Numbered from the stretch's first letter, positions 7,308 through 62,581 are shown. The stretch: 62,581 bases of DNA from Rhodothermales bacterium (GCA_022820435.1 JAJEFL010000009.1:1-62581); one strand, 5' to 3'. Numbers and translations: made by a program. The notes: generated from the sequence alone by a model not told the origin.

Positions 7308-7313
7308 TATCCG

Positions 7314-16340: not shown

Positions 16341-16361
16341 ATTTTTTTTGAATTCAGACAA

Positions 16362-17222: not shown

Positions 17223-17255
17223 CCATACAGTTCATTGTAGAATCAGACATAGTCG

Positions 17256-18167: not shown

Positions 18168-18223
18168 CCGTATGATTTTTCCAGCAAATCAGTGAATACT
18201 TTAGTGGGAATCCATTTTGGGGA

Positions 18224-18685: not shown

Positions 18686-18750
18686 GTCACGAATTTCTCC
18701 ATGGATAAAGACAGATTTGGCGTGTGCACAAACACACGAATCAGATATAG

Positions 18751-18960
18751 CAGCCCGTGGATAAAGTATGATCACAGAATTAGACAGAATAACTGCGTGT
18801 CGTTAGACAGTCGTAGATGGCCAAATCATCTGTTTTTCGCCCTTTTTGAGACTCCAAGGGGCGAAAAACCGCTCTTCTATGGCTATTTTGAGCAGTCTAA
18901 TCTCCAAAGACCAGCCCGAAAAGCGTTCCTCAGATTTTTCTGGACTTTATCCACAGGCTG
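18751..18960 (+). mobile_element. MITE-like non-coding element, copy B (210 bp)
   Basis: The terminal inverted repeats are CAGCCCGTGGATAAAGT (18751..18767) and ACTTTATCCACAGGCTG (18944..18960), a 16/17 match. The element is flanked by ATAG on both sides (18747..18750 and 18961..18964), a candidate target-site duplication. An internal 10-bp stem forms between TTTTTCGCCC (18833..18842) and GGGCGAAAAA (18859..18868). Confidence 0.7.
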
Positions 18961-19160
18961 ATAGATGAAGGGGAATAAGCTATTCATCGAATCCAGGATG
19001 TCATGGACACTCCTGACACCATGGCTTAGTAGAATTTCAATCTATATGAGAATAGTTCTGTGCGCTGAAAACATGAGACCGCAGCCGGAATGTGATGGTA
19101 AGTTCGTTGTTTGTTACCATTCCCTGACAGGTTATTTTCTGACTCTTTGATCATCCTGTA

Positions 19161-35155: not shown

Positions 35156-38100
35156 ATGGTAGGCAGCATCAGGTTTTATCTGCATGTCGGGAGGGTTGCA
35201 TTCTTTGGGCAACCCTTAGTTGGCTGCCGCCAATCCTCAAAATGCCGCCTACCTGATTTTCCATCCGTTCTGATGGTGGTCGGGCTCGTGCTTTCCGTTC
35301 TATCCTTCGCTGCATTCGATTCGAAAGGCTCCGAAAATCATCATGAATCGCCGTCACTTTTTGTCGGTGCAGATCATGGCGGGGCCCCCTGGGAGGCTTG
35401 GGGCAGTCTGGGTCCGGAGTTACTCCCCAGGAATGTTGCAGATTTGAGGCGGACGAATTCCCGCCAAGTGCCTGCGGCCACAGATCTGGAGCAGAACGAT
35501 ACAGAGGATCAGAAAAAAACAGCCGTTCCCCACCTTGAGGAGGGAGTGGAGGAGCATCCTTTGAGCACCAGACGCGGCAACTTCGGTGCTGATTTATCTG
35601 AACATAAGATAAATTCAGATGCTTCCGGCCGGGATATAGTCCCCCTAATGAGTGGATCTGCAGAGGAGGTGATCACGAATCCCCGGACCGTTCCTGCTGT
35701 GATTACCGGCAGCCGCAGGGATGCGACATCGGTGAATATTCCGGTAACTGTTTTTGATGACCGTGTCGACGAGAGTGACGGGGATATCATTCAGATGCTG
35801 GCAGGCACTTCGGACTATACCGCAGGGTTTGACGATGAATATACGCTGACGATCATGGATGATGATCAACCGGAGGCGTACTTTTACTATGAGGATGATA
35901 CGGTCACAGAAGATTATGGCACCGTCTATATCACGATAGATCTCACCGAGGCCCCGTTAGCAGATCTTGACCTGAGTTATCGTCTCGGCGGTACGGCGAC
36001 AGAGGGGGATGACTACGATATTACCGGTGGATCGGGGACTGTGACGGTGCTTGCAGGTTATTATAGTACAGAAATTGAGATAGAGATTACAGATGACATT
36101 GTAGACGAGGATGATGAGGAGACGCTGATTGTGACGCTCATCAGTGGTTCGGGCTACGATGTGGGAACAAGCAGCGTATACACACTGACGATTGAGGACA
36201 ATGATATAACCCCGGAGGTTGAATTTCAAAGCGATAGCTACTCAGCCCCCGAATCAGAAGGTACGATTGATGTATGGATAGATCTCAGTGATGCGGCCAG
36301 CGCGGATCTCACATTGAATTACAGCTTGGGGGGCACGGCCGACGAGGGGACGGACTACAGTATTACGGGTTCGGGAACGGTTTTGGTGGATGTCAGCGAG
36401 GATGCATACTCGGCGACGATCCCGGTTCAGATCATCGACGACATAGCAGACGAGGATGACGAAGAAACCGTCATCCTAACATTAACCAGTGGCACGGGGT
36501 ATACGCTGGGCACGGATCTTGTGTACACATTGACGATTGAGGATGATGATGAGACACCGGATATCGAGTTTAATTATGTTGAGTTTACAGAAGATGAACA
36601 CGTCGGTTTGGTTCCCGGCATAGGCATCTCGTCAAGTATTGATCCCCAGGCAGATTTAACCGTGAACTACGATCTGGGCGGCACGGCGGATGAGGGAACG
36701 GACTACAGCATTACGGGGTCAGGGGCGGTGACCTTTACTGCCGGTATTAACTATGTTGAAATCCCGCTAGAAGTTATTGACGACAGTGAAGATGAGGATG
36801 ATGAGACGGTAATTGTCACGCTGACCGGCGGCACGGGATACAATGTGGGAAGTCAGAATCAGTTTACTCTGACCATCAGAGACAATGATGTGACTCCGGA
36901 GGTTACGTTCGATAATGACTCGGATAATGTGGATGAAGATCATGGTACGGTTAATGTTACAGTAAGTCTCAGCGAGGCGGCGACAGCAGATTTTACATTG
37001 AATTATGGACTGAGCGGCACGGCGGTGCGGGGGATAGATTACACGATTACTGGCGCAGGGACGGTTTCAGTAGGGGCCGGTGAATCCTCAGTCAGTATTC
37101 CAGTGGTGGTTATCGATGACAGTGTGGGGGAGTATGACGAAACCGTCGTCTTAACGCTGACGAGCGGCACGGGATACACGGTGGGAAGTGCTAAGGTATA
37201 CACACTGACCATCGAGAATGATGATGGAACGCCGATAATTCTTCCGTCATTTACGTTTGCTTCAGTATCAGGCAGCGCGGGAGAGGGAGATGGCACCCAC
37301 AATGTAAGTGTAAATGTCAGTCCAGCGCCAGCGACGAATCTTACCTTAAATTACAATCTTGGCGGTTCCGCAATAGAAAATACGGACTACAGTATTACGG
37401 GGTCAGGGACGGTTTCAGTTACGGCCGGTTTAACATCGGTGAATATCCCAATAGTGATTCTCAACGACACTGTGGAAGAGACGGACGAGAACGTAACCTT
37501 AACACTGGTTTCGGGGACGGGGTACAGTTTAGGCAGTGTTTATGAGCATACCCTGACGATTGTGGATAATGATGGGGTCCCGCAGGTTGCATTTGCATCC
37601 GTTTCGAGCAGTGTGGCCGAAGATGCCAGTACGAAATCGGTCACGGTGACCATCAGCCCTGTGTCCACGACGGATCTCACGTTGAAATACAGTCTGGGCG
37701 GTTCCGCAACAGAAAATACGGACTACAGTATTACGGGGTCAGGGACGCTTACTGTACCTGCGAATGCGACCTCGGCAGACATCGTGGCAGCCATTGTTGA
37801 TGATGCCGTAAACGAGCGTGATGAGGATATCATTCTGACACTGACACCTGCTTCGGGCTATACCGTAGGGTCTAATGATCAACATACGCTGACGATCACG
37901 GATGATGATGGGACCCCGGGTGCTGCGTTTGCTGCGAATACAGGCAGTGCGGGTGAAGGGGGAGGCACCCACAGTGTGCGGGTAAACATTGATCCGGTGT
38001 CATCGGTGGAACTCACATTGAATTACGATTTGGCCGGCACGGCCGATGAGGGTGTGGACTATGATATTACGGGCGGATCGGGAACGGTTACCATTACCGC

Positions 38101-41100
38101 CGGTGCAGACGGGGTGGACATCCCGGTGGCGATAGTTGAGGACAGCGATGATGAGCTAGACGAAACGGTAATTCTGACACTGACCGGCGGTACGGGGTAT
38201 CAGATAGGGAGTCCGAGTGTATATACGCTGACGATCACCGATAATGATCAGCCGGAGGTATCCTTTTTCTATGTGGATGAGACGGTCTTAGAAGATGTGG
38301 GTACCACCCGTATCACGATAGATCTCACGGATGACCCACCAGCAGATCTCGACCTGAGTTATCGTCTCGGCGGTACGGCGACAAAGGGGGATGACTACGA
38401 TATTACCGGTGGATCGGGGACGGTGACGGTGCGTGCAGGTTCCTACTCCGTAGTCATTGAGGTAGATGTTACAGATGACAGTATAGACGAGAGTGATGAG
38501 ACGGTGATAGTGACACTCATCAGCGGTTCAGGGTATGATGTGGGAACAAGCAGCGTACACACACTGACGATTGAGGACAATGATGTAACCCCGGAGGTTG
38601 AATTTCAAGGTGACAGCCATACAGCCGCCGAATCAGATGGCACGATTGATGTGACGATAGTTCTCAGTGATGCGGCCAGCGCGGATCTCACATTGAATTA
38701 CAGTTTGGGGGGCACGGCCGATGAGGGGACGGACTACCGTATTACGGGTTCGGGAACGGTTTTGGTGGATGTTAGCGAGGATGCATACTCGGCGACGATC
38801 CCGATTGAGATCATCGACGACATAGCGGACGAGGATGACGAAGAAACCGTCATCTTAACATTAACCAGTGGCACGGGGTACACGCTGGGCACGAATCTTG
38901 TGTACACATTGACGATTGAGGATGATGATGAGATACCGGATATCGAGTTTGATTATGTCGAGTTTACAGAAGACGAAAATGTCGGTTTTGTTTCCGGCAT
39001 AAGCATAGGGGCAAGTGTTGATGCCCAGGCAGATTTAACCGTGAACTATGATCTAGGCGGCACGGCGGATGAGGGAACGGACTACAGTATTACGGGATCA
39101 GGGGCGGTGACCTTGATTGCGGGTACGAACTATGCTGAAATCCCGCTGGAAGTACTTGATGACAGTGAAGATGAGGATGATGAGACGGTAATTGTGACGC
39201 TGACCGGCGGTACGGGATACAATGTGGGAAGTCAGAATCAGTTTACGCTGATCATCAGAGACAATGATGTGACTCCGGAGGTTACGTTCGATAATGACTC
39301 GGATAATGTGGATGAAGATCATGGTACGGTTGATGTTGCACTAAGTCTCAGCGAGGCGGCGACTTCAGATTTTACGTTGAATTACGGACTGGGCGGCACG
39401 GCGGTGCAGGGGACGGATTATACGCTTTCTTGGTATCCAGGGGCGCTTTCGGTGATGACTGGTGAATCCTCAATCAGCATTTCGGTGGAGATTACCGATG
39501 ACAGTGTGGGGGAGGATGACGAAACCGTCGTCTTAACGCTGATGGACGGCACGGGATACACGGTGGGAAGTGCTAAGGTACACACATTGACCATCGTGAA
39601 CGATGATGTGAGGCCGGCGATGGATTTCGCTGCGGCTTCTGCCAGTGTGGGGGAGGATGCTGGTACGCACAATGTGACGGTGGGGCTCAGTGCCGCGCCA
39701 GCGGCAAGTCTTACCTTAAACTACAGCCTGAAGGGCTCGGCAGTGCGGAACGCGGACTACACCAGTCCGGGGACGGTTTCAGTTGCCGCAAATGCAACAT
39801 CGGTGAATATCCCGGTCACCATTACGGATGACAACCTGCAGGAGAGCGACGAGACAATTATTTTGACGCTTACAAGTGGTACAGGGTACAGTGTAGGCAG
39901 TGCAAATGTATATACGCTTACCGTTACGGATAATGATAAGCCGACTGTTGTTTTTGCTCCGGTTTCGGCTGCTGTAAGCGAAGATGCTGGCACGCGGAAT
40001 GTCGTATTAAATCTCACTCCCGCATCAACGACGAACTTCACATTGAACTACCGGCTGGGGGGTACGGCAATCCTGGGGACGGATTACAGCATCAGTGGAG
40101 CCGGGACCTTTTCGGTTCCCGCGAATACATCGTCGGTACGTATTCCGGTATCAATCACCGATGACCGCGTTAACGAGAGCAGCGAGACGATCATCCTGAC
40201 GCTGACTCCCGGTGCGGGATATAATATCGGAGCCGCGCCTGAACATACGTTGACCATCACGGACAATGATACGCCGGAAGTTGCGTTTGCCTTGGCTTCG
40301 GCCAGTGTGGGCGAAGGTGCCGGTCAGTACGATGTAAGGGTAAACGTCAATCCTGCGCCAGTGACCGACCTTGCATTGAGTTACAATTTGACGGGGACGG
40401 CGATCAAAGGAGCAGATTACAGTATTGCAACATCGGGAACAGTCACCGTCGTTGCGGCTGCGGCCTCAGTGGATATTCCGATCATGCTGATTGATGACAG
40501 TGCGGACGAAATTAATGAGACGGTCATCCTCACGCTGACTTCCGGAGCGGGGTATGATATAGGCAGTATAGGGGTACATACGCTGACGGTTACGGACAAT
40601 GATCAGCCGGCAGTCGGTTTTGCTTTGGCTTCAGGCAGTGTGGACGAGGATGTCGGCCGTCATAACATAACGGTAAATGTCCGCCCTCTGCCAGCAGCAG
40701 GCTTTACGTTCAGTTATCGTCTTACGGGCTCGGCGAACGAAGGGACAGATTACAGTATTGCAAATTCAGGGACGGTGGCGGTGGCTGCAAATGCATCCTC
40801 GGTCAATATCCCGGTAGCGATTACAGATGATCGCATTGATGAGAATCTCGAGACGGTCATTCTAACGTTGACGACCGGCACGGGATATGATGTGAGTGGT
40901 ACGAGTGTACACACATTGACCATCACAGACAATGACTTACCCGCGGTTGAATTCCCATCGGCTTCGGGAAGTGTAGGTGAAAATGCAGGTATACATAGTG
41001 TGACCGTCAATATTAATCCTGCGACAGCGGCGGGCTTTACGTTGTATTGCACTTATATCGGTACTGCAGTGCATAACACCGACTATACTGGTCCAAAAAT

Positions 41101-44100
41101 TATTTCAGTGCCCGCCGGCGCAACCTCGGTGGAGATTCCGGTTACAATTATTGATGACAGCAGGGATGAGTCGAATGAGGTGGCCGTCTTAACTCTGACG
41201 ACCGACTTAACGGAGTATACCCTGGGAAATGACTATTCGTATAGACTGATTATCACAGACAACGATATATCCGGGGTCAATTTTGCTTCGGCCTCGGGTC
41301 GCGTGGACGAAGGGGCCGGTACGCATAATGTGACGGTAGATATTGATCCCGTGTCTGCAACGGGCTTCACATTAAGTTACGGACTAGGCGGCACGGCAAT
41401 TGAAGGAACGGATTACAGCATTACCGGATCAGGAACGGTTTTTGTCGCGGCGAATGTGACCTCGGTAAACATCCCGGTGGACCTTACGGATGATCTGGAC
41501 GACGAGGATGATGAGACGCTCATCCTGACGCTGACGGGCAGTTCAGAGTACACGCTCGGAAGTACGAGTGCGCATACGCTGACCATCACAGACAATGATG
41601 TGTCGGAAGCAGTTTTTGCTGCGGCTTCCGGCACCGTAAGCGAAGCGGCTGGTACGCACAATGTGAGGGTCAACATTGATCCCGCACCGGTGGCGGATTT
41701 CACGCTGACTTACAGTCTGGGAGGGACGGCGGCCGAGGGAACCGATTACAGCATTGCCGGATCAGGGGCAATTTCAGTGGGGGCCGGTGCGACCTCGGTG
41801 GATATCCCTGTTGTATTGACGGATGATAGCGAAGAGGAAAATGCCGAGACGGTGATCCTGACGCTGTCAAACAGCTCGGAATATATCTTGGGAACCATAA
41901 ACGAATATACTCTGACCATCACGGATAACGATTTACGGGTACCTCCGACGGTAGCTTTCGCCTCAACCTCGGCGAATGTGGATGAGGATGTCGGTACGCA
42001 AAACGTGACCGTAAGTCTGGGGCGGGCAGTCCCTGCGGGAGGCTTAGCCGTGAATTATCGTTTGGGAGGTTCAGCGACACAGGGAATCGATTACACCATT
42101 AGCGGGGCAGGGGTTATTTCTGCGGCCGCCGGTGCACTCTCGGTGGATATTCCAGTTGTGATTACCGATGATACGGTGAAAGAAGACGAAGAAACAGTGA
42201 TTCTAACGCTGATGAACGGCACGGGGTATGATGTGGGGAGTGACAACGTGTATACGCTGACGATCACGGATAATGACGAAACGCCAGAGGTTGCTTTTTC
42301 CACGGCTTCAGCCAGCATAGACGAAGGAGCCGGTACCCGAAACGTGACGGTGGACATCAGCCCGGCACCGGCGGTGGAATTTACGCTGAACTACGATTTG
42401 ACAGGAGACGCAGAAGAAGGGACGGACTATACTATCTCTGGAGCAAGGACGATTCCAGTGCCCGCAAATGCAATTTCGGTGAATATCCCGATTGTGGTTA
42501 CCGATGACAGCGTAGACGAGAATGATGAGACGATCATCCTCACGTTATTAAGCAGCACGGAGTATACCATAGGAGCTGTGAGCGAACATACATTGACGAT
42601 TACGGACAATGATGAGACACCGGAGGTTACGTTCGCATCGGGGTCATCCAGTGTACTTGAAGATGCCGGTACCCGGAACGTAACGGTAAATATCAGTTCT
42701 GCTCCTGTGGCAGATTTTACACTGACCTACGATTTGACGGGATCGGCGGTGGAGGGGACGGATTACAGTATTACCGGTGGTTCAGGGACGGTTCTATTCG
42801 CTGCGAATGAATTCTCGGTGGATATTCCGATTGAGATTATTGATGACAGTGATGATGAGAATGCTGAGACGGTGATCCTGAGTCTGATCACTACGGGTAC
42901 AGAGTATACGGTGGGAAGCATAAGCGAGCATACATTGACCATTACGGATAATGATGCGATACCGGAGGTGACCTTTGCGTCTACCTCCGTGAGTGTGGAT
43001 GAGGATGTCGGCACACAAAATGTGACGATAAATCTGAGTAGCGCTGCACCTGCGGGGGGCTTAACCTTGAATTACAGTCTGGATGGTTCGGCAGTAGAAG
43101 GAACAGACTACAGTATCACGGGATCAGGATCGGTTTCTGTGGCTGCGAATGCGATCTCGGAGAATATTCCGGTCGTGATTATCGATGACGGTGTGGACGA
43201 AAATGCTGAGACCGTGATTCTGACCTTGACGAGTGGCCTTGGATACACCGTGGGAAGTACAAGCGAGCATACGTTGACGATTGCGGACAATGATGGATTA
43301 CCGACGGCTGCATTTGCTTCGGCATCGGTCAGTGTCAATGAAGATGTGGGTATACACAACGTGGCGGTAAACATTAATCTCAGTTCTGCGCCTCCAGCAG
43401 ATTTTACGCTGAACTATCGTTTGACGGGGACGGCAGAGGAAGGAACGGATTACAGTATTGCCGGATCGGGGACGATTTTAGTCGCCGCAAATGCGACCTC
43501 GGCAAATATCCCGGTGGTGATTACAGATGACAGCACCGAAGAAGAAAGTGAGATCGTCATCCTGACGCTGACAAGTGGTACAGGGTACGATCTGGGAAGT
43601 GCGGATGAGTATACGCTGACGATCATAGACAATGATGCCACACCGGTGGTCGCTTTCGCTTCATCCTCAACCAGTGTGGGCGAAGAGGTGGGGATTCAGA
43701 ATGTGACGGTCAATATCAGCCCTGTATCAGGGGGAGACTTTACATTGAATTACAGTCTGGGTGGGGCGGCGACAGAAGGGACAGACTATCGTGTTGCAGG
43801 ATCAGGGGCCGTCTCTGTCCCTGCAAACGCAAACTCGGTGAATATACCGGTGGAAATTATTGACGACAATTTGGTGGAGAATGATGAGACAGTAGTTCTA
43901 ACCTTGATCAGCGGTACAGGATATGATGTGGGATCCGTGATCGAATATACGCTTACGATTACGGACAACGATACCCCGGAGGTTACCCTTGCTTCCATTT
44001 CAGAAGGTGTAGAGGAGGATTTCGGTACGCATAGCATAACGGTAAATCTGAGCAATACGGCACCTGCAGGAGGCTTTACCTTGAACTACGGCCTGAGTGG

Positions 44101-47176: not shown

Positions 47177-47587
47177 ATGCCAGAGAAAAAACATTCATGC
47201 AACCACCTCGCTGCCGAGTTCTGAACGTATCATTACGAGTATCCTGTTCAATGCGGGTATATGAGTTAATATATCTGTTTCGGACAACTCCGGCACGAAA
47301 GGTCTCCTTGGAACTAAACCGAACAGAGTTCTTATATCCAGGATATTCGCCGGTTCATGTGGCAGGATACGTTTGCGTGTGGGTACAGGCATGTGACGTT
47401 TCCTAGTCTGTTTTGCGTATTTTTGGGGAAATGGGGTAGAATGGAAGACGATACCGAACTTTGTCTGTTTTCTGCGGGGAGTGTATTTTCCCTGCGGGTA
47501 CGAACCTATTCGCCAGTGCTGCGACCCGTGGTGCGGATTGTCTGTTCCCCAGGCTTTCTTTGTCCAAGTTCGAAGTAGTCTACTCTC

Positions 47588-56500: not shown

Positions 56501-59500
56501 CTGGCCGGTACGCCACCGAATCCATTACGCCTGACCTTTACGCCTGCAGATTACGGTACGCCGCAGCCGGTTACCTTAACGGCAGATGAGGATAATCACG
56601 ATCTGTTTGATGAAGAAGTAACACTTACCTTAACGGCTTCTGGCTCGGAATATGCCGGGGTATCTGCGAATTTAGCAGTAACGATTGAGGATAATGACGA
56701 TGGAGTAATTATTGCAGCCCCGTCGGCGGTCACGATGACGGAGGGAGGTACGGGAACCTTTGATGTATCATTGGGAGTCATGCCGTCAACGAGTGTGACG
56801 GTCGTCGTGAGCGGGTACGCGGGTACGGATCTGGCAGGTACGCCGCCGAGTCCGCTGACTCTGATGTTTACAAAGACGAATTACAGCACACCGCAACCAG
56901 TAACCTTAACCGCAGATCAGGACCCAGATATTATTAATGAAAAGGAAACGCTGCGCTTAACGGCTTCTGGTGCAGAATATGACGGGGTAAGCACACCTTT
57001 AACGGTGTCAATCATTGATAACGACCAGACAGGGATCGTTGTCAGTCCATCTGCAGTTACGGTACTGGAGGGTGCCGCGGCCACCTTTGATGTATCATTG
57101 AGTGCAATGCCATCGGCGAATGTAACGGTGGCCGTGAGTGGTTATGCAGGTACGGATTTAGCCGGTACGCCACCAAGTCCAGCAAGTCTGACCTTTACAT
57201 CTGCAAACTATAACACGGCGCAGTTCATAACCTTAACTGCAGAAGAGGATCTAGACATCTTGGATGATCAGGAAGTATTGCGACTAACGGCATCAGGTTC
57301 AGAATATGATGGAGTGACTGTAAATGTACCCGTCACGATTAAGGATAACGGTCACGACCCAGGCATTTCGGTGCGTCTATCGGCGAGTCCCACCTCGGTT
57401 ATAGAGGGCGGTACGATTACGGTTACGGCGACATTGTCGAAGGTGTTTTCGGAGGCGGTTACGATCCCATTGGAATATACGCCCGGCACCCCTGGACCGA
57501 CGGAGCCAAATGATTATGATCGGCTTGCAGTCATCACGATCCCTGGAGGAGTATTGAGTGGATCCGGCAAGATTGTCACAAAAGAGGACAGGGTTTTTGA
57601 GGGGAACGAGACATTCATGGTGGCACTGGGAGATTTACCGTCGGATCTATATCCCGGCATCCCCGCCTCACTGGAACTCACGATAGAAGACAATGACATG
57701 CCACCCCCGGTGGAGGTAACACTCTCCGTTGATCCGCAAGATGTTATTGAGGGGAATTTGGTGACCGTAACGGCAACCCTGGCGGGTGCACTTGAAGTGG
57801 ATGTGACGATTCCGCTGGACTATAACACGGGTACATCCGAGCCTGGAGATTATAAAGAACTTGAACATGTAACGGTTCCCGTTGGCGAGACGGAGGGGGC
57901 CGGACAAATCCAGACATTTCAGGATTCAGATCTTGAGGATGAGACATTTATTGTAGCACTGGGAAGTGATTTACCCCCCGAGGTGGACCCAGGGCGGGCA
58001 TCTTTCCAGACCATCACGATCCGGGATATAATTCCACCGCAAGATGTGAGTGTACAATTTTTGACGGCGACCCAATCGGTGAATGAAGGAGAGACGGTTC
58101 CCGTAACCATAGAATTGGACGAAGGTCTGCCCGCGGATGTGGTGATTCCCTTGACGGTGATGGCTGGCGCGGCAGATGCACAGGACTACCGTGTTTCATC
58201 ACCGATTCAGGTAGGGATTAAAGCCGGGGAGACAAGAGGAACTTCGGTAATCCCCACGATTCAGGATGATATTGTAGAATCGGACGAGACCTTTTCGGTG
58301 GAGGTGGGGGAACTGCCGTCTGGAATCATACCGGGGGAACTCTCGGAAGTGGTCGTGACCATTATTGACGACGATGAAGCAGGATTGAATGTATTGCCCT
58401 CAATGTCTATTGTGGAGGGAGCCTCGGTCGCATTGAATTTTTCGCTGACATCAAAACCAGAGAGTGCAGTCAATGTGGAGATAATCTGGCCTTCAGGGAC
58501 GGATCTGACCGTGCTTCCCGTTCAGCGAATCTTTACGCCGGATAACTGGCAGACATTGCAGATGGTGCTCTTCAGTGCCGCGGAGGATCCCGATTTTAAT
58601 GATGATCAGGTATTGGTGACGTTGGCCGCAACCGGGGGCGGCTACCCAGGAATTTCCCAAACGGTCGATGTAACCATCATTGACAATGATGTGGCCGGGA
58701 TTCATGCGCCGGCATCGGTGATGGTTTCCGAGGGAGGATCAGAAACCTTTGATATTCGGCTTGTTGCCGCGCCTTCGGCTGCGGTGACCGTAACGGTTCC
58801 CGGAACGCTGGGAGATCTCACCGCAACGCCAACGCGTCTGACCTTTACAGAAGATAACTGGGCGAGGCCCCGGTCCATTACCCTGATGGCAGGTGAGGAT
58901 GATGATTTTCTTCCTGATACCGAGATACTCACCTTCACGGCCAATGGAGGTGGCTATGACGGTGAAACACGAGATATGAGTGTGACGATTATGGATGATG
59001 ATGAGGCGGGGATTGAAGCTCCTTTGGAGGTGACGATAGAAGAGGGGGGTACCGGTACACTGCCCGTCCGCCTTCTGGCCGCCCCATCCGGTCCGGTAAC
59101 GTTAACATTGGCAGGGCACATGGGCACAGATCTGGCACTGTCGGGAACTTCGCTTACCTTCACCGGCACAGATTGGAATGTCCTGCAGACGGTGACCTTG
59201 ACCGCAGTGGAGGATAATGACTTTACGGATGACCGTGTGGAACTTGTGCTCACCGCCTCGGGAGGGGATTACGATCATGTACACACGACCCTTGTCACGA
59301 TCATGGACAATGATGAGCAGGAGTTGCCCGTAACAATCGGAATCTATGATGAAAGAGATTCGGAAGATGCAGGCAGCCTGCAGCTGGCGATTGAACTCAG
59401 TCGCTCGGCGGATGAGGTGGTGACGGTGCAGTATGCAACATCAAACATAGAAGCAGAGGCAGGTCTGGACTATACGGCATCCCGCGGAGTCGTGATCTTT

Positions 59501-61243
59501 GATCCCGGCGCAACTCGTGGTGTGATAGAGATTGAGATTATGGATGATGATATCTTTGAGGAATCGGAGCGGTTTACGGTGACCCTGTCGAATCCGGCGA
59601 ATGCGGTCATTGCACGTGGCACAGGAACGGGGACGATTCTGGATAATGACGGGAGTGCAAAACTTCGGGTAGACGATGCATTGGTACAGGAAGAGGAGGG
59701 GGTGGTTGTGTTCCGGGTATTGCTATCCCATCCGCAGCGTCAGATGGTGACGGCAGAATACCGTACGCGGGACGGGAGCGCAAAAGCAGGGGAGGACTAT
59801 GAAGCATCTTCGGGAGTCGTAACCATCGCACCGGGAACCATGGAAGCCCTGATTGCAGTGTCGATCTTGAAAGACGGGCTGGACTGGCAGGAAGAGACGT
59901 TTACCGTACACCTGGAGTCTGCAAAGCATGCCGAGATTGAAAAGGCGGTGGGTGTGGCAACGATTCAGGAGTCGACGACGGTAAGTGAGGGAGTTCTGGA
60001 GGCGTATGCGTCCAGATTTGTACGGACGGCTTCCGTGGAGGTGGTGGACGCACTGGGAGACCGATTCCGTGCAGCCGCAGACGGAGCGATGTGCACCGCA
60101 GCAGAGCGTGCAGAAATGGCACAGCTTTGGTACTCGGCTTCTTCGTGGGACCCATCTCTGGGCGAACTTTTGGCGGACTGCCGCCTGTCTCAAAGTATGC
60201 CGGTATCCGGTGGATCCTTTGGCGTGTGGGGGCAGGGTGCCTTTCGGCAGTTCAATGGTCGGGGCGACGAGGCATTGACGCTCCGCGGAGAGGTGACAAC
60301 GGGGATGCTGGGAGCGGATTACCGCTGGCGCAGAGGCTGGCTGGCTGGCGTGCTTCTGGCGCATAGTCAGGGAGATGGATCGTTTGAGGTAAAAGAGGAG
60401 TCCGGAGAGATGAACTCCGCATTGACGGGGATCTATCCGTATGTGTCGTATACGCGTGCAGGATGGGATGTATGGGTGAGTGCAGGTGCTGGACGTGGCA
60501 GTGCGGAAGTGTCCGAGTTAAAAGGAGACTTGACTTCCCGCTTTGGAGCGATGGGCATGCGGGGTACACTAGCATCCGGCGGGGCTGTTGGACTGAGTTA
60601 TCATGGCGATATTCTGATGACCGATGCAGAGATTGCCGACCATAACATTACAGCAGAAGTGTACCGGGTTCGTGCAGGCATTGAAATGACCACACAGATT
60701 ACAGGAGAAATCCGTCCCTATATGGAAGCGAATGTACGTCAGGATGGGGGCAGTGCAGAGACGGGCACGGGACTGGAACTGGGGGGCGGCGTACGCTTTT
60801 CGAATCCGGCATGGCGTTTACGGGGGGAAGTGCGGACGCAGGGGCTGGTCATGCATACGGCGGATGGATTTACCGAATGGGGAATCTCTGGATCGTTGCA
60901 GATGGGGAGCAGTTCCGAGGGATTGATGATGCGTCTGCGTCCGTCATGGGGACGCGGTCATGGGATGTCCATGTACAATCAGCAGACGATTCTGGATGCG
61001 GCCCCAACCGGAGCAAATGCGCATCGGACCGAATTGGAGTTGGGATACGGCGTTCCTTGGAAGGGTGGCTCGGCTAGATCTATCATGGGGGTGACGCAGT
61101 TGTCCCGGGGAATGATGTACCGGATGGGAGGGGAACTTCGTCCATGGGAACGGCTCTCCTTCTCCGTCTTTGGCTTAGCGCACGGGCGTGAAGCCGTATT
61201 GGGAGACATTGGTGTGAATGTGCAGGGATCACTCCGGTATTGA
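47588..61243 (+). CDS. Giant (4551 aa) beta-sandwich-repeat surface protein with an autotransporter-like C-terminal beta-barrel
   Basis: A single uninterrupted ORF with a short signal-like N-terminus (MKFGFRLSILLLAVIDS). It has two Ig-like modules (FTATFTFSENVTGFEDRDVTVTGGSRGSISGSGRGYTLPVTP) and about 7 Calx-beta-like modules. Twenty modules of the second type follow, with consensus P..V.V.EGGTATF.V.LSAAPS.NVTV.VSGH.GTDLAGTPPDPL.LTF.P.NY..PQ.VT.TADEDPDI.D....L.L.ASGAEY.G....V.VTI.DND. The protein ends with 3 Calx-like modules, 3 second-type modules, 2 canonical Calx-beta domains and the barrel. Confidence 0.9.
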   Translation: MKFGFRLSILLLAVIDSEGVGNHLVRALLHTDGVALSTISWVREKTAPYAELTSRGSLDFAAEDDSISVWESLQSDIDEQIWDVHVSKGEESFGTRIEMEDGGAENGTEDLFFSVRSHSGSGAGKLRESGCRPSNCRPPVQEKKPTLAISNVPGRINSMTTFTATFTFSENVTGFEDRDVTVTGGSRGSISGSGRGYTLPVTPDGEAGVTVEVAANSVINGSGYTGPILAISATAVWDVAVPAVTISVPGRINPPAAFTFREAVMGFTDAYISVTGGTRGVLNGNGYTYTVHAGDIGGTILMTADSIDGDKTFRVVPGAGDLLSGVSGGIPNQVAVTAYEPLKVEFDLSAETVYEGESVTVTARFFNSQATLPGDVTIPFLIYDQNWHSGKPPVVRPQAPEKLELVIKAGTMEDTGTLETIIDGSGRDEEVSVVFGTLPPEVERATTSARLIIKGSKRTVTLSATPNPVFEGSPDGVAVTAELSYAHSQDVRIPLTYRDKTTPGFSLTAEPTDYEDVGFITIPVNGTTGEETIKIPDEPLTPQDTEDETFAVAIDESTLPSDLMAGLSKEVEITIVDKDRPLVYAAPLIVEEGKTGDLKVALTEPPSTTFTVEIGGYQGTDFEATPPNPLTLQFDGTDWDTPKSVTLTAAEDDDDYEDEDEELLLTVKIGSAPFGTGVKVPVTIRDNDKVEVNLELLSPAVVLEGERVTPINPTAKIRVELSKVLSRDVSISLLRTQNLPTAGQPIALCPVVIKAGTKHRDLLELYNADENDDDEQYTVTLDPSPPAPTHSCHVSSWPVEVLEGSDNSVTYTIQDRPVVKLTASPTTVNEGDSVGVRLELSYALGQDVRIKVNAVPRTDPAYATTSWDDFEKLWDGTGILIPKGTTIGRDTVAIRADFEVESDEVFNLGYPSSLLPEAVRQGESRKISLPGTPCDDLTCATIIKDVQVEQVITLSASPNPVFEGNSTTLTVTLAKPLTADQYGIRGLQILSDDKNSQADKNDFTLPYLDEQLRIWNAWWFFLDEGETRKDVVIEIEDDGLDEGDENLIWDIVGYASGNMEANLACNNNPDSVCEITIKIRDPAEIVANPSDFRMTEGGSATFEVSLNTAPSADVTVTISDDGDSDLSWAGTAMLTDGNKLTFTPADYSTPQLVSLTAGEDDSDIANDTETLTLTASGAPEYTGVSAEVEVTIIDNDRGITVMPSVVTIDEGATVRDAFKVSLTAAPTGEVKVTLGDDGDSDVSWSGTAGLTDGNKLTFTPTDYSTPQPVSLTAAEDDDYVNDVEFLALVAFGAEYEGNYAKSMQVTIIDNDDAEIIATPPDVPVMEGGTATFSVSLSVKPSGNVTVAVSGHTGTDLATTPPDPLTVTFTSANYGTPQDVTITADEDPDIWDDPVTLTLTGSSSDTEYDGLTTNVAVTIEDNDAGTIMAAPSDVLVTEGGTATFKVSLSAAPSQNVTVAVSGHTGTDLAGTPPDPPSLTFTPVDYNTPQDVTITADEDSDILDDSVPLTLMGSNAEYDGLTAEVTVMIDDDDIGSIRAPFLLTMNEGETSNSLLDVSLSDAPSGEVTVTVTGHEGTDLEGATPDSPDPVTLIFTQTNYSIPQPVSLTAKEDDDSLDDTVNLLLKATGAEYSGLTKRSQIRISDNDDAKIIATPPEVRIKEGGTATFDVTLSAAPSQDVTVELHGYKKTVLETTPPDPLHLTFTPANYGMRQTITLSAGHDLNDFDEYTILTLRASGAEYNNAKTKLPVSIDDDEVWELTIKEGGMKFLASRFTSKPRSNIVQKITGHAGTDLDVHPSTWTVTPQNYNTPWQKTFTAGEDPDIWDDEVMLVWEDFGRGFKYDMNMRFTIEDNDDGKIIASPSGVPVTEGSTATFEVSLSHAPSQKVTVTVSGHTGTDLAGTPPDPLSLTFRPDNYDEPQPVTITADEDPDITNDTATLILTGSDAEYDGLTTNVVVTIEDKDAGMIIAAPSDVKIMEGGTATFDVSLSVKPTANVTVAVSGHAGTDLAGTPPDPLNLTFTPLNYDKPQSVTLTAGEDQDIYDRFEWLHLDASDAEYDDVQALVGVLIDDNDAGQITMNEGSSAEAFVLSLPDEPTSSVTAMITGYAGTDLATNPPDPQTIVFTPQNYSTGETVTLTADEDPDIWDDLVMLVTEFSGGGYGGQDIKLQVTIRDNDDGKIIAIPSDVPVTEGGTATFNVTLSHAPSQNVTVAVGGYEGTDLAGTPPDPPSLTFRPDNYSTSQQITITADEDPDITNDLATLTLTGSNVEYDGLTTNVAVTIEDNDSGTIIANPSTVKIREGAAAALEVSLSAAPSQNVTVAVSGHTGTDLAGTPPDPLNLTFRPDNYADPQLVTLTADEDPDILDQFEWLYLDASNAEYDGVQTLVGVLIDDNDVWEITMNEGSSVEAFGLALPDEPTSNVTVTITGYAGTDLATIPPDPRMIIFTTQNYSTVRPVTLTADEDQDIWDDVVMLTAEFSGGDYGEQDMKLQVTIRDNDGGKIIATPPDVPVTEGGTATFDVTLSAAPSENVTVTVSSHGGTDLAGTPPHPLSLTFRPDNYNTPRQITITADEDQDIIDDKEILILEASGAEYEGLSEEVRVTIKDNDDGGIIATPYAVTMTEGATETFDVTLGAAPSANVTVKISGYSGTDLAGIPPDPPELTFTPTDYGKAQTVTLTAGEDADVTNDMETLRLTASGAEYTGAVTDVKVSIIDKDQAGIVANPSVVPIAEGTSATFDVTLSAVPSADVTVAITGYTGTDLAPIPPNPDRLMFTKTDYGKAQTVTLTAGTDLDIIDETETLLLTASGAGYTGVETKVTVTINDKDAGSIIAPAALTITEGSTGTFKLSLSNAPSEDITVAVTGYMGTDLAGIPPSPNKLTFTKTNYGDVQTVTLTAGGDPDILDDAEALILTASGAEYAGMKKKIAVTIKDKDAGSIIVPAALTITEGSTGNFDVWLSNAPSENVTVLVSGHAGTGLAGTPPNPLRLTFTPADYGTPQPVTLTADEDNHDLFDEEVTLTLTASGSEYAGVSANLAVTIEDNDDGVIIAAPSAVTMTEGGTGTFDVSLGVMPSTSVTVVVSGYAGTDLAGTPPSPLTLMFTKTNYSTPQPVTLTADQDPDIINEKETLRLTASGAEYDGVSTPLTVSIIDNDQTGIVVSPSAVTVLEGAAATFDVSLSAMPSANVTVAVSGYAGTDLAGTPPSPASLTFTSANYNTAQFITLTAEEDLDILDDQEVLRLTASGSEYDGVTVNVPVTIKDNGHDPGISVRLSASPTSVIEGGTITVTATLSKVFSEAVTIPLEYTPGTPGPTEPNDYDRLAVITIPGGVLSGSGKIVTKEDRVFEGNETFMVALGDLPSDLYPGIPASLELTIEDNDMPPPVEVTLSVDPQDVIEGNLVTVTATLAGALEVDVTIPLDYNTGTSEPGDYKELEHVTVPVGETEGAGQIQTFQDSDLEDETFIVALGSDLPPEVDPGRASFQTITIRDIIPPQDVSVQFLTATQSVNEGETVPVTIELDEGLPADVVIPLTVMAGAADAQDYRVSSPIQVGIKAGETRGTSVIPTIQDDIVESDETFSVEVGELPSGIIPGELSEVVVTIIDDDEAGLNVLPSMSIVEGASVALNFSLTSKPESAVNVEIIWPSGTDLTVLPVQRIFTPDNWQTLQMVLFSAAEDPDFNDDQVLVTLAATGGGYPGISQTVDVTIIDNDVAGIHAPASVMVSEGGSETFDIRLVAAPSAAVTVTVPGTLGDLTATPTRLTFTEDNWARPRSITLMAGEDDDFLPDTEILTFTANGGGYDGETRDMSVTIMDDDEAGIEAPLEVTIEEGGTGTLPVRLLAAPSGPVTLTLAGHMGTDLALSGTSLTFTGTDWNVLQTVTLTAVEDNDFTDDRVELVLTASGGDYDHVHTTLVTIMDNDEQELPVTIGIYDERDSEDAGSLQLAIELSRSADEVVTVQYATSNIEAEAGLDYTASRGVVIFDPGATRGVIEIEIMDDDIFEESERFTVTLSNPANAVIARGTGTGTILDNDGSAKLRVDDALVQEEEGVVVFRVLLSHPQRQMVTAEYRTRDGSAKAGEDYEASSGVVTIAPGTMEALIAVSILKDGLDWQEETFTVHLESAKHAEIEKAVGVATIQESTTVSEGVLEAYASRFVRTASVEVVDALGDRFRAAADGAMCTAAERAEMAQLWYSASSWDPSLGELLADCRLSQSMPVSGGSFGVWGQGAFRQFNGRGDEALTLRGEVTTGMLGADYRWRRGWLAGVLLAHSQGDGSFEVKEESGEMNSALTGIYPYVSYTRAGWDVWVSAGAGRGSAEVSELKGDLTSRFGAMGMRGTLASGGAVGLSYHGDILMTDAEIADHNITAEVYRVRAGIEMTTQITGEIRPYMEANVRQDGGSAETGTGLELGGGVRFSNPAWRLRGEVRTQGLVMHTADGFTEWGISGSLQMGSSSEGLMMRLRPSWGRGHGMSMYNQQTILDAAPTGANAHRTELELGYGVPWKGGSARSIMGVTQLSRGMMYRMGGELRPWERLSFSVFGLAHGREAVLGDIGVNVQGSLRY
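50827..57352 (+). repeat. Array of 20 tandem ~326-bp (~108-aa) coding repeats of the second (non-canonical) beta-sandwich type
   Basis: I counted boundaries by the recurring VT(I/V).D(N/K)D...(I/V)(I/V)A.PS motif in the translation. The array includes a 963-bp three-module superunit present twice. Confidence 0.8.
59966..61243 (+). other. Linker plus autotransporter-like outer-membrane beta-barrel domain of the 4551-aa protein
   Basis: The sequence reads STTVSEGVLEAYASRFVRTAS...GGSFGVWGQGAFRQFNGRGDEALTLRGEVTTGMLGADYRW...GIGVNVQGSLRY. It is collinear with, and highly similar to, 45903..47176. Confidence 0.7.
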
Positions 61244-61513
61244 AAGCATCAACGGCGGACTTGCACACACGACCCGCAGAGTTATCCGATGGTGTAACTT
61301 GAGTCAGCGCCAGCGACGGATTGCCGCGGCGTGCATGGATATTGAAGAGCACTCACGCAACGCCATTCCACAGGACTGGCAGTGGGATGGACTGCTCCGA
61401 GCATTAAAACGGCATGGTAAAACCAAAAACGCTATCTTGTACCCCGACAAAGCTTCAGGGAATTTCACTAACAATGGTGCATTCCCGTTTATCATGGATT
61501 GGCCGAAAGTCTT

Positions 61514-62581
61514 ATGGTATTCATCCGAGTTTTAAGTATTTCCGCGCTGACGTTCTGTTGGATTTCCGGCAATGTATTTGCACAGACCGATCAAGCCGCC
61601 AGTGGAGTTGCCAGTAAATCCGGGCGGCATACTGATGTTCAGCCCTCTATCCCGCATGCCTTGTGGAGGGCATCCCCGGATGGACAAGGTGCCTACGGGA
61701 TTCTGAGTATATATCCGAAAATAATTCGGATTAGTGACACTGAACGTAAGCAATCTTTCATTCGTGAATTTGAAGTTACTGCAAATTCCCCCCCGCGCAA
61801 TGCTATTGACGGTAAATGGGATGTGATTATTGAGCCAAAGGATGAACATAGTGCAGTTCTGAAGGTCAATCCGAATGAATTGGAGATTAACAATACTAAT
61901 TGGCTTTCTTACCAGAAGGTTACAATATCTCACACGGGAAGCCCGGAAATCAGTGTGGACAAATTAGATTTTCGATTGACACTCAAAGAAAGGGATCGCA
62001 AGCTAGACGAAGATATTTTCTCAATTGAGGTGGATAAGCCATATGTCTGGATAGAAGCGATCCCAGACTCGGTAGACGAGGGTGAATCAGTCGAAATCAG
62101 AGTACATATTTCAGAGATTCAGGAGAATCGGGATGCATATATTCTCCTTGAGGTTCGGCCCCCTTCACCGATGCAAGAGAATTTCCGTGACATTAACGTT
62201 GGTACTGCGACTTTTGTCGAAATCAAACGAGGCGAATCATGGGCTAAGGTAGACATCAAAATCGTTGATGATGACCTACCCGAGCCGGACGAGATTTTTG
62301 AGGTATTCATCAATAAAGCCAAACTGCCGAAATGGCTTGAAACTCTTGGGGATAAATGGCCACGTCACACGGTTAGAATTAAATTCACGATCAATGCCAG
62401 CGACAATGAGCCCGAGATTATCGTAGAAGAGGAATTTCTGACGGTGACGGAGGGGCAGACGGACACGCTGAGGGTAAAGTTGTCGCAGAAGCCGAAGCCC
62501 TCGGAGAAGGTGCAGGTGACGATCACTGGATATGAGTCCACGGATCTGGATACCACTGCCTCCAGGCCATGGGAGTTTTCA
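61514..62581 (+). CDS. Third large repeat surface protein; only the N-terminal 356 aa are present, as the gene runs off the window end
   Basis: Absent from the ORF track because there is no stop inside the window. Hand translation from ATG 61514 gives MVFIRVLSISALTFCWISGNVFAQTDQAASGV... (signal peptide with an AQ-T-type cleavage site), open to 62581. It includes a Calx-like module (VDEGESVEIRVHISE...GTATFVEIKRGESWAKVDIKIVDDDLPEPDEIFEVFI). It ends in a second-type module (LTVTEGQTDTLRVKLSQKPKPSEKVQVTITGYESTDLDTT). The upstream in-frame stop is at ~61469. Confidence 0.8.
   Translation, partial: MVFIRVLSISALTFCWISGNVFAQTDQAASGVASKSGRHTDVQPSIPHALWRASPDGQGAYGILSIYPKIIRISDTERKQSFIREFEVTANSPPRNAIDGKWDVIIEPKDEHSAVLKVNPNELEINNTNWLSYQKVTISHTGSPEISVDKLDFRLTLKERDRKLDEDIFSIEVDKPYVWIEAIPDSVDEGESVEIRVHISEIQENRDAYILLEVRPPSPMQENFRDINVGTATFVEIKRGESWAKVDIKIVDDDLPEPDEIFEVFINKAKLPKWLETLGDKWPRHTVRIKFTINASDNEPEIIVEEEFLTVTEGQTDTLRVKLSQKPKPSEKVQVTITGYESTDLDTTASRPWEFS

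Follow-up and report, generated by a model that had tools for sequence, protein, structure and literature searches.

Giant tandem beta-sandwich proteins with a predicted autotransporter-related C-terminal barrel in a sponge-associated Rhodothermales bacterium

How are giant proteins that consist almost entirely of beta-sandwich modules exported and held at the cell surface, if each of them ends in what resembles an autotransporter barrel? Classical type V barrels are regarded as 12-stranded, and their passengers are almost always beta-helical. The inverse autotransporters (type Ve: intimin, invasin) show that the type V route can handle tandem arrays of Ig-like sandwiches. The question is raised by a 62,581 nt stretch of DNA (hereafter the window; GCA_022820435.1 JAJEFL010000009.1:1-62581) from a Rhodothermales bacterium, in which a reading made from the sequence alone had proposed a tandem array of giant Calx-beta autotransporters. 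According to its source record the window originates from a Caribbean Ircinia sponge metagenome, and the nearest MAGs likewise come from Ircinia sponge metagenomes. A protein identical to the first gene product, p1, is found on ENA record KELL22-1_SAMN22237334_METAG-scaffold_643.

Three giant genes in tandem

The ORF list of the window contains three tandem ORFs on the plus strand with spacers of 411 and 270 bp, which matches exactly the three same-strand genes, sizes and gaps given by the sequence-only reading. Gene p1 (35156..47176, +; 12,021 nt, 4006 aa) encodes a protein that opens with a hydrophobic, signal-like segment, continues with 31 Calx-beta-type modules and closes with a linker and a predicted C-terminal barrel. 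Translation and Pfam scans of p2 (47588..61243, +; 13,656 nt, 4551 aa) gave a signal peptide and Big_12 Ig-like domains ahead of about 31-33 Calx-beta-like modules, with a linker and a predicted barrel at the end. Of p3 the window holds the 5′ part (61514..62581, +; 1,068 nt, 356 aa), the gene running past the window end. Its translation starts with MVFIRVLSIS and shows a clear signal peptide, ending in ISGNVFA before QTDQ, and then the first Calx-beta-like modules. Across all 356 aa it is 88% identical to P0077, a protein of 2164 aa with the family barrel at aa 1827-2164, and this similarity makes it very probable that p3 belongs to the family as well, as its third member here.

By inspection, p2 carries a Sec signal peptide that begins MKFGFRLSILLLAVI, as p3 does in the form given above. 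In p1 the hydrophobic stretch VLMVVGLVLSVLSFAAF is preceded by a 38-aa leader and the start codon is therefore uncertain. Typical Sec signal peptides were seen in many homologues. On inspection, the proteins thus show the two ends expected of type Va, a Sec signal peptide at the N-terminus and an aromatic beta-signal at the C-terminus. The N-terminal region of p2 contains a Big_12 bacterial Ig-like domain (48011..48265, +; aa 142-226; PF19078, E 5.7e-16, 2 stretches) followed by a second copy. Neither the translation nor Pfam revealed a recognisable ligand-binding head domain at the distal N-terminus of p1.

Searches of the window for tRNA genes and Rfam families were negative. The regions 5′ of p1, p2 and p3 showed no conservation, and scans for sigma-70 promoters and terminators stayed at chance level. 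No ABC, HlyD or TolC (T1SS) genes are encoded at positions 1-35 kb of the window, upstream of the array.

Passengers built of Calx-beta-type modules

The module array of p1 (35606..45904, +; aa 151-3583) consists of 31 tandem modules of 110-116 aa, that of p2 (48629..59971, +; aa 348-4128) of 31-33 modules, both delimited by jackhmmer and DNA repeats. The repeat families D1, D3, D7 and D9 of p1 have a period of 333-348 nt, and families D2 and D4-D6 of p2 a spacing of 324-333 nt and 636/963 nt. Module length thus ranges from 109 to 116 aa over both proteins, which replaces the earlier figure of about 105 aa. The earlier count of about 31 modules holds for p1, whereas about 37 for p2 was too high.

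Pfam Calx-beta (PF03160) was matched in 27 stretches of p1 (E 7e-196) but in only 3 stretches of p2. The description as Calx-beta arrays consequently applies in full to p1, while p2 is mostly made up of a divergent Calx-beta-like type which has no name in Pfam and joins the family only via jackhmmer. These 'type B' modules of about 109 aa (xGHxGTDL...TLTAxEDxD...TIxDND) are arranged with 3-module super-repeats, and the final two modules of the array are Pfam Calx-beta. Iterative searches started from either module type returned the same module set; judged by this sequence similarity, all modules of p1 and p2 are members of one Calx-beta-related superfamily. The p1 array matches the CBD (= Calx-beta) domains of Na/Ca exchangers, and the last modules align with NCX1 CBD across the DDDIFEEDE site. 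No solved relative of the p2 array was found by sequence.

An acidic loop motif of the type IIDDxxDExDE occurs in 28 of 31 p1 modules and a terminal motif of the type T-I-x-D-N-D in 30 of 31; both together were counted in 28/31 modules of p1 and 20/31 of p2. Acidic motifs like the Ca2+ sites of NCX Calx-beta are present in 28/31 and 21/31 modules, respectively; the repeats combine such motifs with matches to PF03160. The passengers are strongly acidic throughout (D+E against K+R: 588 vs 85 in p1, 669 vs 203 in p2), and from their sequence the acidic modules probably bind Ca2+. Pfam scans and jackhmmer detected no Pertactin, PL1_Passenger_AT or autochaperone (AC) domains in p1 or p2. The passenger is wholly of Calx-beta-type and Ig-like sandwiches and contains no beta-helix of the type Va kind.

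A conserved C-terminal cassette

Towards the C-terminus p1 and p2 become alike. A gapless, colinear alignment defines a common cassette (44312..47173, +; p1 aa ~3053-4006) of three type B modules, two Calx-beta modules, the linker and the barrel. The two proteins share about 60% identity over the type B modules; the value rises to about 70% for the Calx-beta modules and about 84% for linker and barrel, but is only about 30% upstream of the cassette. In alignment A1 the last modules are kept in homologues too, and the linker is conserved across the family. The linker (p1: 45917..46144, +, aa 3588-3663; p2: 59984..60211, +, aa 4133-4208) comprises a helix predicted by AF2 and a disulfide-type loop bracketed by two conserved cysteines (Cys 3624 and 3653 in p1, Cys 4169 and 4198 in p2). 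The helix spans 28 residues (residues 2-29 of both models) with a pLDDT of 82-93 overall and 87-93 in p2, and is predicted to lie about 45 residues before the first barrel strand.

The barrel itself (p1: 46145..47173, +, aa 3664-4006, 343 aa; p2: 60212..61240, +, aa 4209-4551) is predicted to have 18 strands in both proteins. Both C-termini contain the motif GSFG(I/V)WGQGAFRQFNG and end with an aromatic residue (GTLQY in p1, GSLRY in p2); in homologues the last residue is Y, F or W. Autotransporter (PF03797) was the only Pfam family matched by the last 480 aa. Scanned alone, this segment scored 28.2 bits in p1 (profile positions 1-94 of 255) and 29.4 bits in p2 (1-123 of 255) at a cutoff of 26, while in full-length scans p2 reached 23.4 bits, below the cutoff, and p1 had no match at E<=0.01. 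Distant relatives whose passengers are of the Big_9, cadherin, fn3 or SWM type scored 38-39 bits; P0186, at 38.5 bits, covers profile positions 1-246 of 255, others 9-212 and 6-221. The Gammaproteobacterial relative P0189, with a barrel of about 250 aa, carries the NCBI name 'autotransporter outer membrane beta-barrel domain-containing protein'.

Other profile searches were negative. Searched against NCBIfam at E<=10, the two C-termini did not match TIGR01414 and gave a single irrelevant weak match, and no other barrel family in Pfam or NCBIfam scored above PF03797. Among PDB chains neither the barrel alone nor the family profiles A1 and A3 found an autotransporter or other barrel; A1, whose alignment still held the last Calx modules, matched only NCX Calx-beta domains. 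Comparison of family profile A2 with the beta-domain of E. coli K-12 Ag43 by hhalign was not significant (probability 0.2), the single-sequence template being too weak.

Secretion signals of other systems were sought in the same proteins. No T9SS sorting domain (PF18962, TIGR04183, TIGR04131) was found in the last 480 aa at E<=10 in Pfam or NCBIfam, no RTX nonapeptides (GGxGxDxUx) or PF00353 in p1 and p2, and no IAT_beta (PF11924), LysM or YadA_anchor (PF03895) in the Pfam scans. That RTX repeats and a T9SS C-terminal sorting domain are lacking, as had been noted from the sequence, is hence confirmed by HMM and motif searches.

Structure prediction of the barrel

AF2 predicted the C-terminal ~420 aa of both p1 and p2 as a membrane beta-barrel with a helix before it. 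Model 1 (p1) has a pLDDT of 66.7 and 18 strands according to DSSP, model 2 (p2) a pLDDT of 79.8, a pTM of 0.76 and likewise 18 strands. The alignment for the second run was shallow (33 sequences), because word-indexed homologue searches had given only 22-39 proteins, mostly fragments. Both independent models place the helix before the 18 strands and long loops on the expected extracellular side. All predicted strands alternate between hydrophobic and polar residues, b13-b18 being as amphipathic as b1-b12.

The structural neighbours differ by model. For model 1 the top Foldseek matches were solved type Va barrels, namely EstA (3e-7), Hbp, BrkA, NalP and EspP, with a TM score of 0.71 for BrkA when normalised to the target. 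Model 2, the more confident of the two, was nearer to 22-strand TonB-dependent receptors (TMq 0.47-0.49) than to EstA and EspP (0.26-0.32), EstA ranking fifth. Neither model shows the 12 strands of type Va, and the barrel exceeds the 255-position Pfam model by about 90 residues. The claim of an autotransporter-type C-terminus thus survives in part: a membrane beta-barrel is predicted after a helix and PF03797 is matched marginally, but with 18 predicted strands and no match to TIGR01414 this would be no classical type Va barrel.

Relatives in other genomes

We identified 73 related loci, all in MAGs of Rhodothermales or other Bacteroidota, at least three of them sponge-derived. Single genomes hold at least 7-18 divergent paralogues, often in tandem, so that the proposed expansion as a local gene family is borne out both at this locus and genome-wide. 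The barrel sits at the exact C-terminus in all 86 related ORFs (206 to >3700 aa). About 70 of the 86 reach 1,000 aa or more, and those below this length are either truncated at a contig end or short ORFs. In the search of a representative library 81 of the best 150 matches carry the barrel; profile A1 used there was partly driven by Calx-beta, and its 52,516 total matches are Calx-beta proteins, not the barrel family.

The expectation that no close homologue is characterised was upheld, public homologues being named 'hypothetical protein'. In the literature we found no such homologue and no description of an autotransporter with Calx-beta or Ig-like passengers, or of one in Rhodothermales.

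Proposed export route and rival readings

Taken together, sequence comparison and structure models make it probable that p1 and p2 are giant surface fibres, self-anchored and most probably self-exported via their own autotransporter-related C-terminal barrel. The protein would pass the inner membrane by Sec via its N-terminal signal peptide, and BAM would insert the C-terminal barrel, the last strand of which has an aromatic end. The conserved helix and the Cys-bracketed loop would remain in the barrel lumen as linker or plug, while the passenger of about 3,600-4,100 aa with its 31-33 Calx-beta-type sandwiches would exit with its C-terminal end first. The conserved last five modules might then fold earliest and the remainder one module after another once outside, with seawater Ca2+ bound at acidic inter-module sites as the stabilising factor. 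The product would be a rigid acidic rod, still attached to the barrel, of the order of 150 nm at about 4-5 nm per module. We infer in this way the route and direction of export, that Ca2+ is bound, that the passenger is exposed at the surface and that it acts in adhesion; the terms 'adhesin' and 'calcium-rigidified' of the sequence-only reading are to be taken in this sense.

Against this reading stand the marginal and partial PF03797 match, the missing matches to TIGR01414 and to any solved autotransporter, and the differing structural neighbours of the two models. Moreover, Ca2+ is not excluded from the marine periplasm, yet at least 30 sandwich modules must stay unfolded before export.

Since the barrel exceeds classical ones by about 90 residues and is predicted to have 18 strands instead of 12, we read it as an enlarged-barrel variant of type V rather than canonical type Va. 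It might instead be an ordinary 12-strand type Va barrel with the extra ~90-100 residues forming an inserted hairpin subdomain or extracellular extensions, only the passenger being unusual. The 12-strand autotransporters at the top of the Foldseek list for model 1 would agree with this, as would Pfam positions 1-123, which cover predicted strands one to six, the same part as in classical barrels, and the barrel of P0189, which can be aligned over the length of the family barrel apart from a single block of about 100 residues. Since the aromatic terminus sits on the very last strand, however, the extra block is internal to the barrel sequence and not appended; the more confident model lies nearer to 22-strand barrels, and the extra strands b13-b18 match b1-b12 in amphipathicity. 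We consider the 12-strand alternative rather unlikely. It appears quite improbable that the barrel is a mere membrane anchor or porin-like domain, with the repeats using a separate machine (e.g. an unrecognised Bacteroidota pathway) or staying unexposed. Homology to autotransporters is weak, to our knowledge a wide 18-strand barrel has no precedent as a type V translocator, and T9SS cargo occurs in related genomes (a Por_Secre_tail protein in locus L001), all of which would suit an anchor. Against it, p1 and p2 have neither a T9SS CTD nor an RTX or T1SS signal, transporter genes are linked neither in the window nor in L001, a fibre of 30-plus modules at the estimated length is too long for the periplasm, and the type Va order of signal peptide, passenger, helix and C-terminal barrel is invariant in the 86 ORFs.

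If surface exposure is accepted, the main role of the proteins could still be something other than host adhesion, such as forming a coat that binds Ca2+ or a fringe like an S-layer, holding symbiont cells together in microcolonies, or shielding them from phage and phagocytosis. The extreme acidity, the many divergent paralogues per genome, which suit antigenic or coat variation, and the headless N-terminus of p1 point in this direction. Comparable long Ca2+-dependent beta-sandwich arrays (LapA, SiiE, BapP) are nevertheless adhesins (PMC12153261), and sponge symbionts show a statistical enrichment of Calx-beta domains over free-living relatives (PMC9531527, PMC11706023); on balance we regard such a role as unlikely. 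The target of adhesion could be the host matrix, with its own aggregation factor built of Calx-beta domains, or other cells.

Comparison with known systems

The proteins share with type Va autotransporters (EspP, NalP, BrkA, EstA, Ag43; PF03797) the domain order and C-terminal aromatic residue, the sole matching Pfam barrel family, and Foldseek neighbours at the top for model 1 and in fifth place for model 2. They differ by 31-33 Calx-beta-type sandwiches instead of a beta-helix, by a barrel of about 343 aa with 18 predicted strands instead of about 255 aa with 12, by the Cys-bracketed loop between helix and barrel, by the missing TIGR01414 match and by a Bacteroidota host. Type Ve proteins also display tandem Ig-like beta-sandwich domains via a type V barrel, but there the 12-strand barrel (PF11924) is N-terminal and the passenger C-terminal to it; with a C-terminal barrel and no PF11924 or LysM, type Ve is ruled out. 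Trimeric (Vc) autotransporters are likewise ruled out by the absence of PF03895, a short C-terminal anchor, and by a barrel of about 343 aa.

LapA, SiiE, MpIBP and BapP of Pseudoalteromonas tunicata have long acidic Ca2+-dependent arrays of beta-sandwiches of about 100 aa, some of them Calx-beta-like, in marine or biofilm settings (PMC12153261). The present arrays resemble them in length and acidity; unlike these giant RTX/T1SS adhesins and BapP, p1 and p2 combine a signal peptide with a C-terminal barrel and lack nonapeptides, a C-terminal T1SS signal and linked ABC/MFP/TolC genes. The T1SS RTX reading is ruled out by the absence of nonapeptides, PF00353 and linked ABC/HlyD/TolC genes. The T9SS-secreted adhesins SprB and RemA are giant repetitive surface proteins of the same phylum (Bacteroidota), in contrast to which p1 and p2 have none of the three T9SS domain models searched at E<=10; without a type A or B C-terminal sorting domain they are ruled out as T9SS cargo. 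The demosponge Aggregation Factor is described as made up for the most part of Calx-beta domains, with a function in cell adhesion and recognition that depends on Ca2+ (PMC5400394, PMC11670116). It shares the Calx-beta build and occurs in the host tissue where the bacterium lives, but, unlike p1 and p2, its proteins are secreted components of a eukaryotic proteoglycan and carry Wreath and VWA domains. Mimicry of, or interaction with, this factor is speculation.

Implications

For the type V field, this widespread family pairs an apparently much larger, autotransporter-related barrel with sandwich arrays of up to 4,500 aa. This raises the questions of what limits the size and foldedness of type V substrates, whether pore size co-evolves with the passenger fold, and why T9SS-bearing Bacteroidota use a type V-like route as well. 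A wider proposal, which we offer tentatively and as rather doubtful in its full extent, is an unrecognised type V subclass. Its barrels of about 340-385 aa, derived from the autotransporter type, enlarged to about 18 strands and plugged by a helix and a disulfide loop, would be specialised for exporting or anchoring beta-sandwich modules in tandem (Calx-beta, cadherin, Big_9, fn3, SWM) and not beta-helices, with 10-18 or more giant paralogues per sponge-symbiotic Rhodothermales genome, and the fibres would engage or mimic host adhesion by the Calx-beta aggregation factor. For surface display, a scaffold that exports long sandwich arrays by itself could also be of use.

For sponge symbiosis, Calx-beta has so far been only a statistically enriched 'eukaryote-like' Pfam. 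Through the genes described here, that enrichment can be tied to an actual class of proteins, with a predicted place in the cell and a number of copies, and a testable link to the Calx-beta aggregation factor of the host is added; the fibres may be a means by which the symbionts attach within their sponge.

Giant Proteins and Their Repeat Modules

Three consecutive giant genes are located on the plus strand at the end of the window. The first two, p1 (35156..47176) and p2 (47588..61243), are complete and encode proteins of 4006 and 4551 aa, and the third, p3, starts at 61514 and continues past the window end with 356 aa visible. According to the ORF list the genes are separated by 411 and 270 bp, which are the distances already given in the sequence-only reading. 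Across all 356 visible residues p3 is 88% identical to a protein of 2164 aa whose C-terminus is the barrel of this family, which argues that the window very probably carries three family members in tandem.

The translations of p1 and p2 are long acidic repeat arrays, with 588 D+E versus 85 K+R residues in the p1 passenger and 669 versus 203 in that of p2. Jackhmmer searches started from a module of either protein converged on one common set, and therefore all modules belong to one superfamily, of which p1 has 31 copies (aa 151-3583) and p2 has 31-33 (aa 348-4128). On the DNA level one repeat spans 333-348 nt in p1 versus 324-333 nt in p2; at a higher order there are segmental duplications, such as 36115-36414 versus 38494-38793 (91% identity), and p2 contains super-repeats of three modules. 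Pfam identified Calx-beta domains in 27 stretches of p1 (E 7e-196) and in only three stretches of p2, all near the C-terminal end, as well as two Big_12 Ig-like domains close to the p2 N-terminus. The majority of p2 modules are of a divergent form, here termed type B (…SGHxGTDL…TLTADEDxD…TIxDND), which has no Pfam name and for which sequence searches found no solved relative. RTX nonapeptides were absent from both passengers in a motif search.

From p1 aa ~3050 through the C-terminal end, p1 and p2 can be aligned without gaps. Identity within this cassette is ~60% over three type B modules, ~70% over two Calx-beta modules and ~84% over the barrel and its linker, a helix and Cys-bracketed loop that connects the barrel to the last module; upstream of the cassette it falls to ~30%, the usual level between modules. 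The linker Cys pair is conserved (residues 3624 and 3653 in p1, 4169 and 4198 in p2), and the family alignment showed that the last modules of the cassette are kept in homologues of other MAGs. At the opposite end, directly after the hydrophobic core of the signal peptide (p1 aa 40-62, window ~35273-35341; p2 aa 8-23; also seen in the homologues P0061 and P0074), one subset of the family carries the motif …(F/I/L)D-S-x-G-x-x-N-H and a second subset carries …ALGQ(E/A)Q(T/A)PKIQIH. Judging from these motifs, the family has at least two conserved types of N-terminal leader.

The C-Terminal Barrel

When the last 480 aa were scanned alone, Autotransporter PF03797 was the sole Pfam match for both p1 (28.2 bits) and p2 (29.4 bits; cutoff 26), with partial coverage of profile positions 1-94 and 1-123, respectively, of 255. 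Full-length p2 scored 23.4 bits and thus below the cutoff, and the Pfam scan of full-length p1 gave no PF03797 match. NCBIfam, including TIGR01414 and the T9SS sorting-domain models, returned no relevant match for either C-terminus at E<=10, nor did the barrel sequence and family profiles give a sequence-level match to solved proteins. Conservation across the entire barrel family is highest in the motif VRxDGGxAETGxGLELGGG (p1 aa ~3835-3857, window ~46658-46726; p2 aa ~4380-4402), which lies in the predicted strand 9-10 hairpin and persists even where relatives share just 27-30% identity; this motif may form a Ca2+ site or touch the linker.

The last 419 aa of p1 (model 1, 20 sequences, pLDDT 66.7) and of p2 (model 2, 33 sequences, pLDDT 79.8, pTM 0.76) were modelled with AlphaFold2. 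Both models have the same secondary structure, in which a helix predicted with confidence (residues 2-29) is followed by a segment of lower confidence with two conserved Cys and then by 18 beta-strands that start at residue 77 and end with the C-terminal Tyr. The two long loops, of 22 and 9 residues, would be on the extracellular side, provided that strand 1 begins in the periplasm. In Foldseek searches with model 1, solved type Va barrels ranked top, with EstA (3e-7) followed by Hbp, BrkA, NalP, EspP and AIDA-I, and BrkA reached a TM of 0.71 normalised to the target. With the better model 2, 22-strand TonB-dependent receptors were leading (TMq 0.47-0.49), and the autotransporters EstA and EspP scored 0.32 and 0.26-0.29. 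The family barrel measures ~343 aa versus 255 positions in the Pfam model, and compared with the ~250-aa barrel of the gammaproteobacterial relative P0189 it contains one extra block of ~100 residues before the last strand. The family alignment displays hydrophobic/polar alternation in all 18 predicted strands, the last six included. Our reading is that of an autotransporter-related barrel with a predicted gain of strands; less likely, the barrel has 12 strands and the extra residues form a subdomain inserted into it.

The initial description of these proteins as autotransporters was largely right, and the feature is real; an assignment to canonical type Va did not hold. PF03797 is marginal, TIGR01414 fails, and the passenger is a sandwich array whereas that of type Va is a beta-helix; moreover, 18 strands are predicted for the barrel compared to 12 in type Va. 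For these reasons we refer to the proteins as autotransporter-like.

Relatives and Distribution

Distant barrels (27-35% identity) form the C-termini of proteins with Big_9, cadherin, fn3, SWM_repeat or Calx-beta passengers. They are also long, with 328-384 aa between the WGxG motif and the C-terminal end, and score 22-39 bits against PF03797, with P0186 matching nearly end to end (positions 1-246 of 255). Among the best 150 representatives from a library of 1.8 billion proteins, 81 carry such a barrel, and all 81 end in an aromatic residue. Together with the varied sandwich passengers, this indicates that proteins combining a sandwich-repeat passenger with a long barrel of the autotransporter-like kind are widespread in metagenomes. 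PF03160 and PF03797 already co-occur in precomputed Pfam annotations; our literature searches found no published description of such proteins.

When GTDB genomes, one for each species, were scanned with the barrel profile, 125 matches were confirmed and 73 loci were kept, all of them in MAGs labelled Rhodothermales, Rhodothermaceae or 'Bacteroidetes bacterium'. These loci hold 86 barrel ORFs of 206 to >3,700 aa (~70 of them at least 1,000 aa), with the barrel at the exact C-terminus in every one; short barrel ORFs were either cut by contig ends or short as such. Two or three barrel ORFs stand in tandem on the same strand in 12 loci, and single MAGs encode at least 18, 12, 11, 10, 9 and 7 barrel genes. 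On the 4.15-Mb contig L001 of a related genome (4364-11935), 105 bp separate a 1843-aa Calx-beta ORF from the next ORF, which has 644 aa and contains both Calx-beta and the barrel. The pair could represent one family member that has been split or frameshifted, or else an arrangement of two genes; barrel ORFs as short as 330-720 aa also occur at several further loci. A family member on L001 adjoins a Por_Secre_tail protein and a TonB-dependent receptor, and therefore T9SS cargo is present in at least that genome.

An identical p1 protein was found on the ENA record KELL22-1_SAMN22237334_METAG-scaffold_643. The closest MAGs, jk18x9bins.87 and jk18xAbins.42 (barrel identity 81-82%), are named in the manner of Kelly et al. 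2022 on Caribbean Ircinia sponge microbiomes, where Rhodothermia were among the symbionts (PMC9531527). In the source records the homologues are named 'hypothetical protein' throughout. Other sponge metagenome studies are presumably the source of MAGs with names like CAR3_bin_6 and SB0661_bin_24.

Other Genes in the Window

A DDE_Tnp_1 transposase domain (E 3e-12) is encoded in a 665-aa ORF (30895-32892, plus strand) that precedes p1 by ~2.2 kb, and a mobile element beside the array may be relevant to the spread of the family within genomes. Pfam domains further revealed a dense run of sugar-modifying genes on the plus strand (2552-20270) with five GFO/IDH/MocA oxidoreductases, five xylose-isomerase-like TIM barrels, gluconate 2-dehydrogenase subunit 3, an FGE-sulfatase-type protein, ApbE and a TonB C-terminal domain protein. 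The run looks like a repertoire for the utilisation of carbohydrates or sulfated glycans; a glucuronate isomerase is encoded apart from it (33259-34710, minus strand). Positions 10000-12600 have a GC content of 0.457 versus ~0.52 and contain only short ORFs with no Pfam match. This stretch and the 405-aa AAA_16/NACHT-like ATPase that comes after it (12616-13833) may constitute a small foreign or defence-type island. Two adjoining paralogous ORFs of ~380-400 aa each (20276-22550, minus strand) start with a CarboxypepD_reg-like domain and are otherwise unannotated, and a 770-aa ORF (25967-28279, plus strand) encodes an unusual fusion of a Na+/H+ exchanger membrane domain, TrkA-N and PTS EIIA-2.

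Proposed Export and Function

The order of signal peptide, passenger, helix and C-terminal barrel with aromatic terminus is the layout of type V self-export, and no transporter genes linked to the giant genes were found in the window or on L001. The proteins would cross the inner membrane through Sec, the barrel would be inserted by BAM and the linker held in its lumen, and the passenger would exit with its C-terminal end first, the five conserved membrane-proximal modules being the first to fold. Before export, the modules would have to be kept from folding too early in a periplasm that contains Ca2+. Inverse autotransporters illustrate that Ig-like arrays are exportable by type V barrels. 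Should the number of ~18 strands be true, the lumen would be much wider than the type Va pore. Speculatively, such a barrel could ease the need for a fully unfolded passenger and would need a plug bulkier than a single helix.

Acidic motifs of the modules (IIDDxxDExDE-type loops, terminal D-N-D) match the Ca2+-site region of NCX Calx-beta domains, and the module alignment spans the DDDIFEEDE site of NCX1. This resemblance suggests that the passengers are likely Ca2+-stiffened rods in seawater. Ca2+-dependent long sandwich arrays of other bacteria are adhesins (PMC12153261), Calx-beta is among the Pfam domains enriched in sponge symbionts over free-living relatives (PMC9531527, PMC11706023), and Calx-beta domains make up the demosponge aggregation factor, the complex that serves the host itself in Ca2+-dependent adhesion and recognition (PMC5400394, PMC11670116). 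These three lines make it an attractive idea that the giant proteins may attach to the host adhesion system or mimic it; a possible alternative is that they serve as a coat, in cohesion or in shielding. As a tentative and still somewhat doubtful proposal, the family may represent a distinct enlarged-barrel subclass of type V that serves sandwich-repeat passengers exclusively and is linked to symbiosis with sponges.
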